Origin: Elsinoe ampelina
Taxonomy: Eukaryota
NCBI GenBank assembly: GCA_010093995.1
Contig: ML992550.1
Location: forward strand, 1-32,318
Direction: 5' to 3'
DNA length: 32,318 nucleotides
Under the pieces are notes generated by a model. That model made no database searches. It was not told where the DNA came from and saw only the letters and a program-made list of their open reading frames with translations. Positions 12,847 to 16,815 of this stretch are shown here, one piece after another. The position numbers were made by a program, and so were the translations under genes. Position 1 is the stretch's first letter. Each line of letters opens with the position of its first letter.

Positions 12847-13869
12847 CTAGCCGAGCACCTTGTACTTGCTGTCGGTCTTGCCCTTCTTCTGCACACCTTG
12901 CCCAGGCTGCATTCCAAGTGGATCCATCTTTGGGGGCTTGTTGTTGTTATTGCCTCCTCCACTGCCACCACCACCCTGGCCGCTCTTGCCCTTGTTGTGC
13001 TTTCCCTTGTAGCGATCGTCCTTTTTGGTCGCCACTTTGATCTCCGTCTCCGCTCGTCTAATGAGCACAGGGTGACTGCCGATGTACTTGCCGTTCATGT
13101 CCTTGGCTGCTTGAAAGTATTCATCTGCATCGGAAAACCCAACAAAGCCGAAACCCTTGCTCTTTGTCGTGCGCTTGTCTCGAACCACACGAGCTTTCTG
13201 GACGGAAGGCCATTTCGAGAACGCCTTGAGGAGAGAATCATCGGTGACCTCTCCCGCCAAGTTGCCGACAAATATGCGATGGAGGTTGCCCCATTCGAGC
13301 AGTGTTGCATCTTCCCACTTCTGACCACCACCTTGACGAACCACCGTCTTTTGACCCACAGGTGTAGTGTCGCCAGATGTGTTTGGAGTGGAGCCATCAA
13401 GACGATTGCTCTTCAATGGCAGGTAATTGACATTTATGCCTGGTTTTTCTCCTGGCTTGGGCTGAGGTGTCCCGGAATAATTTGACTGCCACTGCTGCAT
13501 CTGCTGTTGCCACTCTGGATCTGCAGCATTCAATGCGCCATCTGCACCACTGGCTGTTGGAGGAAGGAACGGATTGTGTATCGTAGGTGTCGGTGCGGCA
13601 TATTGATTGTAGTCGTACCCGGCGGCATACTGCTGAGGCTGCTGTCCATATTGTTGGTAGGCTCCATACTGTTGTGAAGCACCACCATACCCTCCGCTCA
13701 TGTCATATCCTGCTGCTGGATAGCTTGGGTACTGCTGTACCTGGGGTGAAGCTGTGCGCTTTGGAGGCGCGGAGGACGTGACATTTCGTGGTTTGAAGGC
13801 GAAGCCAGGTTTGGCCGGTAGGGCATGACCACCCGCAGGTGTCGACGAACCTGATCCTGGAGCACTCAT
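12847..13869 (-). CDS. RBM42-like RRM RNA-binding protein, 340 aa
   Basis: WEDATLLEW followed by an RRM (RIFVGNLAGEVTD...ARVVRDKRTTKSKGFGFVGF...MNGKYIGSHPV), typical of the RBM42 family. Q/Y/P-rich N-terminus. Confidence 0.88.
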   Translation of the reverse strand: MSAPGSGSSTPAGGHALPAKPGFAFKPRNVTSSAPPKRTASPQVQQYPSYPAAGYDMSGGYGGASQQYGAYQQYGQQPQQYAAGYDYNQYAAPTPTIHNPFLPPTASGADGALNAADPEWQQQMQQWQSNYSGTPQPKPGEKPGINVNYLPLKSNRLDGSTPNTSGDTTPVGQKTVVRQGGGQKWEDATLLEWGNLHRIFVGNLAGEVTDDSLLKAFSKWPSVQKARVVRDKRTTKSKGFGFVGFSDADEYFQAAKDMNGKYIGSHPVLIRRAETEIKVATKKDDRYKGKHNKGKSGQGGGGSGGGNNNNKPPKMDPLGMQPGQGVQKKGKTDSKYKVLG

Positions 13870-13874
13870 TGAGC

Positions 13875-13977
13875 CTGATGTTTTGGAGTGATGCGCAAGA
13901 GCTCAATGACAAGCGGCCCTCGAATGTGCGAGGACGCGACAGCTCGCGTGGAGAAAGCAGGAGATGGATCGCCTTAC
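13875..13977 (-). other. Putative 5'-UTR intron of the RBM42-like gene
   Basis: Minus-strand GAG|GTAAGG donor at 13977 and CATCAG acceptor at 13875, 5 nt before the ATG. Branch site is weak. Confidence 0.5.
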
Positions 13978-14437
13978 CTCACTGTACCAGCTCTGAGCTT
14001 CACGACCGACGATACCAAGTGCTTGAATAAGATGGCCGAGTTGCGCGAGCTGTTCTGAATGAGGCTCTGCTGGAGTGAGTGTGAGCAAAGAACGGTATCG
14101 GCCTATGAGATCCGACGTTGCGGCCCCCGCCGGCGAGAGAAAATTTGGTCATCGTCATTTCTTGGCATGCGTTTCCCAGCCGGAAATCCAGTGGGACAAT
14201 CTCAGATCCCGACCTCGACTTCGCTAATTGGAGCCACTAATCACAAAAAGTCGGCCAAGATAGGCCTCAATTGAATCATTTACCGTGCAGTAGATGTCTC
14301 TCAACTTTGTCCGTGACAATCCGAATCATTCCGGTTAAATCTGAGCGTGATATTGGACATCTCCGCGAGCAGCTTACAAAGATAGCTCCCAAAGCAGCCC
14401 ACTAAACTGACCACGAACCCCACCAAAGCCCGCTAAG

Positions 14438-14532
14438 GTCAGTCCTCCGATTCAACAACACCTCAAAGTCCGGACCGCCAAAACATCCCACTTCCTTCTT
14501 CTCATCCCGTCACTGACATTTTACTGCCACAG
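14438..14532 (+). other. Putative 5' leader intron of GND1
   Basis: AAG|GTCAGT donor at 14438, ACTGAC branch at 14512-14517, CACAG acceptor ending at 14532. Confidence 0.7.
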
Positions 14533-14595
14533 CTGGCTCCTTCACAAAGACTCTCGACAATCACAAACCACCTGACCAAACCTCCATCGCCCGCC
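14533..14595 (+). other. In-frame N-terminal extension of GND1 carrying a PTS2 peroxisomal signal (RLSTITNHL)
   Basis: 21 stop-free codons in frame with the ATG at 14596: LAPSQRLSTITNHLTKPPSPA. The nonapeptide R-L-x5-H-L is at 14548-14574. Confidence 0.7.
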
Positions 14596-16314
14596 ATGTC
14601 CACGGAAGCTGTGTAAGTCCGACCCCTCATTCTATCGACCACGAAAATATTTCTCCCAACGATACCGGACAAATTGGGCTGACGGACATGTTTCCAGTGG
14701 AGACTTCGGTCTCATCGGTCTGGCCGTCATGGGTCAGAACCTGATCCTCAACGCCGCTGACCACGGCTTCACTGTCGTCGCCTTCAACCGAACTGTCGCA
14801 AAGGTCGACCGCTTTTTGGAGAATGAGGCAAAGGGCAAGTCCATTGTTGGCGCCCACTCGATCAAGGAGTTCTGCCAGAAGCTCAAGAAGCCCCGCCGCA
14901 TGATGCTCTTGGTCATGGCAGGCAAGCCAGTCGACGACTTTATCGAGCTCCTCTTGAAGGAGGGTGGACTCGAGGAGGGTGATATCATTATTGATGGTGG
15001 TAACTCTCACTACCCGGACACCAACCGCAGGACCGAGTACTTGAAGACCAAGGGCATCCGCTTCGTCGGTAGCGGCGTCTCTGGGGGTGAGGAGGGTGCA
15101 CGCTACGGACCCAGCATCATGCCTGGTGGTAACGAGGAGGCTTGGCCATACATCAAGGACGTTCTCCAGAGCATCTCCGCAAAGTCCGACGGTGAGCCAT
15201 GCTGCCAATGGGTCGGTGACCAGGGCGCTGGCCACTACGTGAAGATGGTGCACAACGGCATTGAGTATGGTGACATGCAGCTCATCTGCGAGGTCAGTAG
15301 AGTCAATCGTGGAAGAAGGAAAAGACACTAATATCAGAATCAGGCCTACGATATTCTCAAGCGTGGTCTCGGTCTTTCGAACAAAGAGATGGGTGATGTC
15401 TTTGCCAAATGGAACACTGGTGTACTCGACTCATTCTTGATTGAGATCACTCGCGACATCCTCTACTTCAACGATGATGATGGAACTCCTCTCGTCGAGA
15501 AGATCCTCGATTCCGCTGGCCAGAAGGGTACCGGAAAGTGGACTGCCATCAACGCTCTCGACCTGGGTATGCCAGTCACCCTCATCGGTGAGGCCGTCTT
15601 CGCTCGTTGCTTGTCATCTCTCAAGGAGGAGCGTGGCCGCGCTGCGTCAATCCTCCCAGGCCCAAGCCCCAGCTTCAGCGGTGACAAGCAGCAATTCATC
15701 GACGACCTTGAGCAGGCCTTGTACGCCTCCAAGATCATCTCATATGCCCAAGGTTTCATGCTGATCCAGAATGTGAGTATACCCATGCAAATTCAGTTTA
15801 CGATTGTCTGACGAATTTCAGGCCGCCAAGGAATACTCATGGAAGCTCAACAAGCCAGAGATTGCCCTTATGTGGCGTGGTGGATGCATCATTCGCTCGG
15901 TCTTCTTGAAGGACATTACCTCTGCGTACCGTGAGAACCCTGATCTCGAGAACTTGCTCTTCCACAAGTTCTTCACCAACGCCATCACCAAGGCCCAGGC
16001 CGGGTGGAGGAACGTCGTCGCAAAGTCTGCCGTCTGGGGTATCCCAACCCCGGCCTTCAGCACTGCCCTGTCCTTCTACGATGGTTACAGGACCAAGGAT
16101 TTGCCCGCCAACTTGCTTCAGGCCCAGCGTGACTACTTCGGTGCCCACACCTACCAGATCAAGCCCGAGTTCGCTAGCGACAAGCACCCCGTCGGAGCCT
16201 ACAGCCACACGAACTGGACAGGGCGTGGTGGCAACATCAGGTTCGTCCTCCGCGCGTGTAAAAATTTCGGCTCATTGACTAATTTGAACCAGTGCAAGTC
16301 AATACAACGCGTAA
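14596..16314 (+). CDS. GND1: 6-phosphogluconate dehydrogenase (decarboxylating), 5 coding exons, 493 aa
   Basis: Exons 14596-14612, 14698-15292, 15344-15772, 15822-16240, 16293-16314. Motifs [77 protein letters not shown]; ends GGNISASQYNA*. Confidence 0.98.
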
Positions 16315-16815
16315 TGTGGTCGCGTACCGATCCAGGTTGGCCAAGGATGTTTATTGGCAATGGAAGAATGAAAATACAATGTCTATGTGTTCCAATTAGA
16401 TCAATAAGCAGCTCCGTTGGTGCCGACTCGTTGCATCGTGTCGTGTAGTCAATGTCCACATTGCGTGCTGATTTCTGGCCGTCGTGAAATGCACGGCGGC
16501 GGATCTGCGCTCTGATTGGTTGAAGCTCACTTCTCGCATTGACTTCGCGGACGTGACCTTGAACTTCCACTGCCATCTCCACCATAAATCGGACCGCCCA
16601 GGACTCGAGCTGCCGTTGAAGCGTAATTGTTGAGAGTCTACGCCTTACGCCTACGCCCACCTCCCGCGCCCGGCTATAGATAAGGACGAGTGGGCGATCA
16701 GCTCACTTTGGCAGGGTCTCCTCTGACCATGAGGTTGGCTTCATTATAGGAAGCGAGTCAACGCCGTACATCGACAGTGACACTTGACCGGGAGCGTCCA
16801 ATACCACGGAATTCC

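Follow-up and report, generated by a model that had tools for sequence, protein, structure and literature searches.

A conserved type 2 peroxisomal targeting signal is encoded in frame in the 5′ leader of the 6-phosphogluconate dehydrogenase gene of Elsinoe ampelina

The DNA stretch analysed here, referred to below as the window, comprises 32,318 nucleotides (nt) of Elsinoe ampelina (assembly GCA_010093995.1, contig ML992550.1, positions 1 to 32,318 of the forward strand) and contains GND1 (PGD), the gene for 6-phosphogluconate dehydrogenase (6PGD). The 5′ leader of this gene encodes, in the frame of the enzyme and directly ahead of its main AUG, an exact match to the type 2 peroxisomal targeting signal (PTS2), RLSTITNHL, and motifs of the same kind stand at the same position in 6PGD genes of other Pezizomycotina. 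The leader contains an intron that is removed in part of the RNA, both a spliced and an unspliced form of the leader were seen, and neither has an in-frame AUG ahead of the signal. By analogy, the best explanation, in which we place moderate confidence, is that the locus is a homologue of the Pgd1 case of Ustilago maydis, where a near-cognate start codon, here most likely the CUG at 14533, would give rise to a minor isoform imported by Pex7.

The leader, its intron and the RNA that carries them

An earlier note, made from the DNA letters alone, had pointed to a PTS2 immediately upstream of the GND1 ATG and in frame with it, and the sequence and its translation agree. The segment in question, LAPSQ-RLSTITNHL-TKPPSPA, is encoded at 14533-14595, and its nonapeptide fits the consensus (R/K)-(L/V/I)-x5-(H/Q)-(L/A), as quoted in Kremp 2020, and ends 7 codons 5′ of the main ATG (14596-14598). 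Upstream, the 6PGD frame is open for 53 codons, from 14437 to the ATG, after a TAA at 14434-14436, and a scan of the sequence found no ATG from 14297 to 14595. The note had further named the CTG as the first codon after a CACAG acceptor ending at 14532, together with a GTCAGT donor at 14438, both of which are present as described. This codon, CUG in the RNA, lies at −63 relative to the main AUG and 5 codons before the Arg of the motif, and RLSTITNHL would begin at residue 6 of a protein initiated there, with no in-frame AUG ahead. A search with the 59-residue leader translation against longer proteins returned 12 candidates, none with E <= 10, and the exact leader is found in no deposited protein.

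Logan contigs of four runs (X1, X2, X15 and X6) were placed on positions 13700-16500. The contigs of X1, X2 and X15, which represent three studies, are 99-100% identical to the window and differ from it in no letter, and they derive from RNA, since the four GT..AG coding introns are absent from them. Run X6 belongs to a relative (90-97% identical) and contributed no more than 34 loose letters from exon 1, which give the ATG and then MSNTEAV. The leader junction 14437|14533 occurs in contigs of X1 and X2, that is, in two studies (joint 14435/14531, cut +2, GT..AG), and the intron 14438-14532 that the earlier note had foreseen is spliced exactly as predicted. In X2 the sole GND1 contig has the spliced leader, with 65 letters upstream of the joint; in X1 a second contig of low depth covers 13977-14435 and then crosses the joint. 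In X1 and X15 the main contigs pass the acceptor without a splice and then continue into downstream exons that are spliced correctly. The mRNA of all three runs thus includes the PTS2 region, and transcription beginning only downstream of 14548, which the note had taken as evidence that would speak against its proposal, was not seen. Stretches lacking contig cover (14076-14357 in X2 and X15, 14436-14461 in X1) were counted neither for nor against transcription.

Both forms of the leader lack an in-frame AUG ahead of the PTS2. In the spliced form this is owing to a TGA at 14408-14410, which shares the frame of the exon ending at 14437 and has nine AUG-less codons after it, as had been anticipated; the unspliced form is open back to the TAA at 14434 and is also free of ATG. 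Splicing changes the letter at −3 of the CUG from C to A, in the sequence and at the RNA joint alike, and the context is aagCUGg when the intron is removed and cagCUGg when it is kept. Both contexts exist, because spliced and unspliced leader contigs were both seen, and the weaker cagCUGG is at least as common as the spliced one. The unspliced form could arise by transcription starting inside the intron or by retention of the intron; the first positions of the contigs in two studies lie 9 nt apart, a weak hint of an internal transcription start. We also observed that the form of the leader (14371-14462) varies by study, with X2 showing the spliced form only and the main contigs of X1 and X15 beginning within the leader intron. 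It may be that a housekeeping gene here switches promoter with condition or strain.

Homologous signals in other fungi

The chance tests used a strict PTS2, defined as [RK][LVI]x5[HQ][LA], that had to be in frame with the ATG and separated from it by no stop. When the 159-nt leader was dinucleotide-shuffled 20000 times, 199 of the shuffles (~1%) contained such a motif, as did 43 of 9190 stretches of 159 nt taken at random from the window; the narrower RLx5HL occurs twice among the 64584 six-frame positions of the window. Alone, then, the Elsinoe motif is an event of about 1%, and it is more than chance because it is conserved in relatives.

The relatives compared were the 120 closest 6PGD proteins, with leaders from outside the genus Elsinoe. 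Eighteen of these protein models extend at least 15 residues upstream of the canonical Met, and 14 of the 18 carry R-[LV]-x5-[HQ]-[LFIV] at 7-12 residues before it. Among Dothideomycetes the motif reads RVDSIAHHL in Sphaerulina musiva, RLYSFTHQL in Neodothiora populina, RVNSISSHF or RVNSISNHF in Pseudocercospora, RLHSLSQHI in Fulvia fulva, RLTSFSNHI in Cladosporium allicinum and RLSNIAQQV in Friedmanniomyces simplex. In Sclerotiniaceae (Monilinia, Botryotinia) it is RLIHLQNHL, and three transcript-derived proteins share RLSDLSAHF. The four extended models in which the motif is absent (P0025, P0031, P0034 and P0040) are all transcript-derived. Fungal metagenome contigs gave a similar picture: an in-frame motif was found at five of 10 loci with a readable leader (L001, L007, L008, L014 and L016), where chance would account for 0.6-2% per locus.

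When 15 leaders were aligned, the Arg was invariant, position 2 was L or V, position 5 was hydrophobic in 14 of them, position 8 was H or Q, and position 9 was L, F, I or V. Searching with a profile built from this alignment further brought up long isoforms of budding yeasts with a similar motif directly before GD[IL]GLIG, namely RLSAISNHM in Candida metapsilosis, RIANVASHL in [Candida] railenensis, RIKQIASHL in Wickerhamomyces ciferrii and RLSVISKHI in Spathaspora. The conservation of the nonapeptide in relatives, for which the earlier note had asked, is thus found: in 6PGD genes of other Pezizomycotina a homologous motif stands at the corresponding position, and the Elsinoe nonapeptide is a homologue of an old fungal 6PGD PTS2.

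One metagenome locus, L001, whose exon-1 peptide is that of Aureobasidium vineae, has a strict motif, RLLSLSSQL, with a TAA six codons upstream and no AUG between them. At L001:2086-2212 there is an ATG followed by 6 codons, a GTTAGT donor, a branch-like CACTGAC and an in-phase AG, and judged by these elements splicing could supply an AUG to the PTS2 of this locus. Orthology of the Elsinoe and L001 leader introns was sought by DNA alignment and given up, the leaders being too divergent and of too low complexity, and an alignment of the two donors by eye was dropped as unproven. Two other AT-rich, fungal-like metagenome contigs, L024 and L047 (each at ~2450-2500), which are 77-79% identical in exon 2, have a PTS2 right at the N-terminus of the main open reading frame, with the N-termini MMSPINRLNIIKNHLTNKPSGDIG and MLRLSQIAGHVTNKASGDFG; within the stretch read, a separate cytosolic start is not visible in them.

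Possible routes to a peroxisomal isoform

We infer a mechanism that would run as follows. The 5′ leader of GND1 encodes an ancient N-terminal PTS2 in frame with the enzyme, and most ribosomes would scan to AUG 14596 and produce the cytosolic enzyme, because neither observed leader form has an in-frame AUG ahead of the PTS2. A small fraction of ribosomes would start at a near-cognate codon of the leader, for which CUG 14533 is the best candidate; this codon acquires its favourable A at −3, with G at +4, only after removal of the 14438-14532 intron. The unspliced leader holds further in-frame near-cognate codons, AUC 14485 (A at −3), AUU 14518 and CUG 14524, which may serve as additional start options. 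Initiation at any such codon would yield an extension of 21 or more residues bearing RLSTITNHL, which Pex7 would recognise, and import of the isoform into peroxisomes would supply NADPH there.

This proposal is modelled on Ustilago maydis Pgd1. As reported, the PTS2 of that gene lies within its 5′ untranslated region (UTR), no AUG and no AUG-supplying splice form are described for it, and translation starts at AGG AUU (−63 to −58) with ~2% efficiency, giving a product that is imported into peroxisomes (Kremp 2020, PMC7214817). The two loci concern the same enzyme, and each has an in-frame PTS2 upstream of the AUG, at 39 nt in Ustilago and at 48 nt in Elsinoe. Both also lack an in-frame AUG and an AUG-supplying splice form in RNA data, have a candidate near-cognate start at −63, and have a motif conserved in related species. 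For Elsinoe, no AUG-supplying form was found in the contigs, which do not exclude rare forms, and the conservation described above extends over 14 of 18 extended models and five of 10 metagenome loci, though mostly with an upstream AUG. In all the features open to testing, the Elsinoe locus agrees with the Ustilago design. There are differences as well. Ustilago is a basidiomycete smut and Elsinoe a dothideomycete, and hence of a different phylum; the reported Ustilago start is the tandem AGG AUU, whereas the best candidate in Elsinoe is a CUG; and the Ustilago case has been supported by reporter, fractionation and mutational proof, whereas Elsinoe is known here from sequence and RNA contigs. 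Only Elsinoe has a spliced leader intron ending at the candidate start and a second, unspliced form, and the words "intron" and "CUG" are absent from the text of Kremp 2020.

Near-cognate initiation has a precedent closer to Elsinoe in the cpc-1 gene of Pezizomycotina, in which the starts reported as used and conserved are CUG, AUU and ACG that have A at −3 and G at +4 (Ivanov 2017, PMC5487733). Neurospora crassa cpc-1 shares with Elsinoe GND1 an in-frame, AUG-less and conserved extension of a Pezizomycotina gene; it differs in that the protein is unrelated, the extension carries no targeting signal and the start codons themselves are conserved across species. In the full-text literature, beyond Kremp 2020 and the papers citing it, we found no paper that joins non-AUG initiation, PTS2 and fungi.

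Splicing provides the other known route. In Candida albicans and other Saccharomycotina, alternative 3′ splice sites of GND reportedly include or skip the PTS2 (Strijbis 2012, as cited in PMC3798809 and PMC7491326), and both yeast isoforms share one AUG exon, with the PTS2 downstream of it between two acceptors (Hurtig 2020, PMC7491326). The earlier note had invoked alternative splicing in Candida albicans and non-AUG initiation in fungi as precedents, and both are correct, the latter being the Ustilago case. Candida GND resembles the Elsinoe gene in the enzyme encoded and in the motif, RLSAISNHM in the long model of Candida metapsilosis and RLSTITNHL in Elsinoe; an intron adjoins the PTS2 in both, and the peroxisomal form, as reported for Candida and as proposed for Elsinoe, is the minor one. 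In Elsinoe, unlike Candida, the PTS2 precedes the main AUG, the upstream exon seen in RNA contains a TGA and no in-frame AUG, and the Saccharomycotina arrangement of alternative 3′ splice sites is not what we find at this locus.

A potential PTS2 in intron 1 has also been reported for A. fumigatus (Hurtig 2020, PMC7491326), and Supplemental Fig. 6 of that paper, which concerns this signal, may bear on how far the Pezizomycotina motif has already been published. Intron 1 of the Elsinoe gene opens with an in-frame TAA and thus cannot supply a PTS2. At the position of intron 1 we noticed a conserved insertion after the Met, ARLAGI(N/D)VGG..PSGDFG, in Eurotiomycetes, Lasiodiplodia, Bathelium and Calycina. 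It is present in 13 of the 120 closest models (P0041, P0051, P0056, P0057, P0069, P0077, P0085, P0091, P0093, P0108, P0109, P0119 and P0120) and at metagenome loci L009-L012 and L017, and it is PTS2-like at positions 1, 2 and 5, with G-G or G-L where H/Q-L/A would be expected (positions 8 and 9). This insertion concerns the same gene and the same N-terminal region as the Elsinoe PTS2, but it lies downstream of the main AUG, and intron 1 of Elsinoe holds nothing comparable.

Several observations weigh against translation of the Elsinoe signal from a near-cognate codon. An in-frame upstream AUG is present in most motif-bearing relatives (12 proteins together with L007, L008, L014 and L016), and E. 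ampelina, which has none, could have lost the isoform recently. In L001, the sole other AUG-less relative, the CUG is not conserved. Half of the readable metagenome loci (L002, L003, L004, L006 and L013) have no in-frame motif, a KLx5HV string in L006 being out of frame, and the peroxisomal isoform is for that reason dispensable in some lineages. The 80-nt segment that begins with the CUG (14533-14612) contains no downstream hairpin that would assist initiation there: its minimum free energy is −3.9 kcal/mol, where shuffles average −10.2 kcal/mol (z +2.47), and none of the 200 shuffles folds worse than the A/C-rich GND1 leader. An unstructured leader of this kind is as expected of a highly translated mRNA.

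The alternative that survives best builds on these points. In it, an ancestral upstream AUG was lost in E. ampelina and the nonapeptide persists untranslated in the 5′ UTR as a relic, with no meaningful peroxisomal 6PGD. An upstream in-frame AUG is the rule in motif-bearing relatives, loss does happen, as the five metagenome loci with the motif absent or out of frame attest, neither observed leader form has an in-frame AUG, and no RNA structure aids non-AUG initiation. Against a relic, none of the four fixed positions of the motif departs from the strict consensus and position 5 is still hydrophobic, the 53 codons to the ATG are open, and the spliced mRNA presents a CUG, flanked by A at −3 and G at +4, at 5 codons before the Arg. 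The strict PTS2 of L001, kept with no AUG and a stop 6 codons upstream, suggests that AUG-less forms are maintained, and U. maydis shows that such an arrangement is workable. On balance we regard the relic as unlikely, while giving it real weight.

A stronger version of near-cognate initiation would make the leader a switch, in which the choice of splicing or promoter, which varies among the RNA studies, sets the context of the CUG (the optimal aagCUGg, made by the splice junction itself, or the weak cagCUGg) and thus the peroxisomal share of 6PGD. The transcripts with the weak context would in this version probably begin within the intron. We consider this quite doubtful. A start-codon context built at an exon junction that tunes dual targeting is not described in the literature we found.

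Somewhat less probable again, in our estimate, is a route resembling that of Candida albicans, in which rare long transcripts would join ATG 14294 and 4 further codons, by way of a donor at 14309, to the acceptor at 14532 and so encode an isoform beginning MSLNF-LAPSQ-RLSTITNHL. The earlier note had offered this as its alternative model; the ATG and the GTCCGT donor are indeed in phase with the acceptor, and the junction 14308|14533 is in no contig of the runs, which cannot exclude rare forms. We enumerated the sets of ATG, donor and acceptor that would supply an in-phase AUG, and among the 20 combinations a donor that combines G at +5 with T at +6 is unique to the pair 14294/14309; the 18 combinations using other donors were rejected because those donors are poor. 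Of the two acceptors listed for this pair, 14532 is the one seen in RNA, and the pyrimidine at +3 is tolerated in this gene, whose own donors include GTCAGT and GTTCGT. RNA containing ATG 14294 exists in the X1 contig covering 13977-14435, the Candida PTS2 isoform is reported at ~0.1% of mRNA (PMC7491326), a level below contig detection, and in L001 an ATG is likewise followed by 6 codons, a GTTAGT donor and an in-phase AG. The X1 contig that covers 14294-14309, however, is unspliced there and uses the 14438 donor, and the spliced X2 contig has just 65 nt upstream of its joint. By our estimate, about one GTNNGT donor would be expected by chance among so many combinations, and the intron would measure 224 nt, against 49-95 nt for the other introns of the gene. 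A mere accidental PTS2-like string in a C/A-rich leader, unrelated to targeting, is highly improbable: shuffled leaders do yield a strict in-frame motif at ~1% and the leader is fairly open in all three frames, but 14 of 18 extended models and five of 10 metagenome loci share the motif and its position, against the 0.6-2% expected per locus, and a cryptic PTS2 is already documented for 6PGD.

Gene structure, surroundings and wider meaning

The product of the gene has Pfam domains PF03446 (NAD_binding_2) and PF00393 (6PGD C-terminal domain), both above cut-offs, and exon 2 is 100% identical to the deposited E. ampelina protein and 96% identical to the 6PGD of E. fawcettii; with both domains, its length and its high similarity to fungal Gnd1, it is a full-length decarboxylating 6-phosphogluconate dehydrogenase. 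The coding exons (Table 1) sum to 493 codons, the same length as the proteins of relatives. Codon 7 is split by intron 1, and the N-terminus of relatives' 6PGD reads MSTEAVGDFG. At the 3′ side, GND1 RNA contigs extend to about 16391-16426.

The deposited gene model of this locus is wrong at both ends. The E. ampelina protein P0002 (549 residues, "partial") starts at exon 2, leaving out exon 1 and the ATG, and it reads through the last intron (16241-16292), which is spliced in the RNA contigs, to acquire a false C-terminal tail of ~69 residues. The true product has 493 residues (window 14698-16450, RNA contigs).

Upstream and on the opposite strand lies a gene for a Q/G/P-rich protein with one RRM domain, whose first exon reaches about 14065-14069. 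About 300 nt separate this exon from the upstream end of the spliced X2 leader contig, and GND1 and the RRM gene appear to share a short bidirectional promoter. In X1, one contig spans from the first exon of this neighbour into the GND1 leader.

Table 1. Positions in the window of the GND1 leader elements, the GND1 coding exons and the divergent neighbour
Feature	Position	Strand	Details
RRM-domain protein gene	12847..14069	-	RRM_1 (Pfam); one intron about 13857-13977 (RNA joint 13855/13977, CT..AC)
Most 3′ upstream ATG, 14-codon upstream open reading frame (MSLNFVRDNPNHSG, then stop)	14294..14338	+	Last ATG ahead of the main start; sequence
Leader exon 5′ of the intron	14371..14437	+	Minimum extent, from the spliced X2 contig; TGA 14408-14410 inside, no ATG
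5′-leader intron, 95 nt	14438..14532	+	GTCAGT donor after AAG, branch-like ACTGAC 14512-14517, CAG acceptor
3′ part of the leader intron, kept unspliced	14453..14532	+	Main GND1 contigs: X15 from 14453, X1 from 14462
CUG, candidate near-cognate start	14533..14535	+	First codon after acceptor CACAG (AG 14531-14532)
PTS2 nonapeptide RLSTITNHL	14548..14574	+	R at 14548, HL at 14569-14574; sequence, translation
Coding exon 1	14596..14612	+	Main AUG, MSTEA and 2 bases of the Val codon; sequence, RNA contigs
Intron 1 (GTAAGT..CAG)	14613..14697	+	RNA contigs of X1, X2 and X15
Coding exon 2, NAD_binding_2 domain	14698..15292	+	RNA contigs, Pfam
Coding exon 3, 6PGD C-terminal domain	15344..15772	+	Preceding intron 15293-15343; RNA contigs, Pfam
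Coding exon 4	15822..16240	+	Preceding intron 15773-15821; RNA contigs, Pfam
Last coding exon, stop TAA 16312-16314	16293..16314	+	Preceding intron 16241-16292, GTTCGT donor; sequence, RNA contigs

A pentose-phosphate enzyme with a hidden isoform that supplies peroxisomal NADPH is known from Candida, where the isoform depends on splicing, and from Ustilago, where it depends on a non-AUG start. What the Elsinoe locus adds to the Ustilago case is a verified 5′-UTR intron at the candidate start and a second, unspliced form of the leader. Taken with the motifs of relatives, our comparison suggests that this N-terminal PTS2 of 6PGD is ancient and widespread in Pezizomycotina, many plant pathogens included, and that it is routinely missed or mis-annotated in gene models. 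It also suggests that lineages reach this signal by different routes, through an upstream AUG, through splicing or with no AUG at all. Predictions of the peroxisomal proteome of such fungi should scan 5′ leaders too, and E. ampelina, the grapevine-anthracnose fungus, offers a compact and testable case, in which a verified 5′-UTR intron ends exactly at a candidate non-AUG start.

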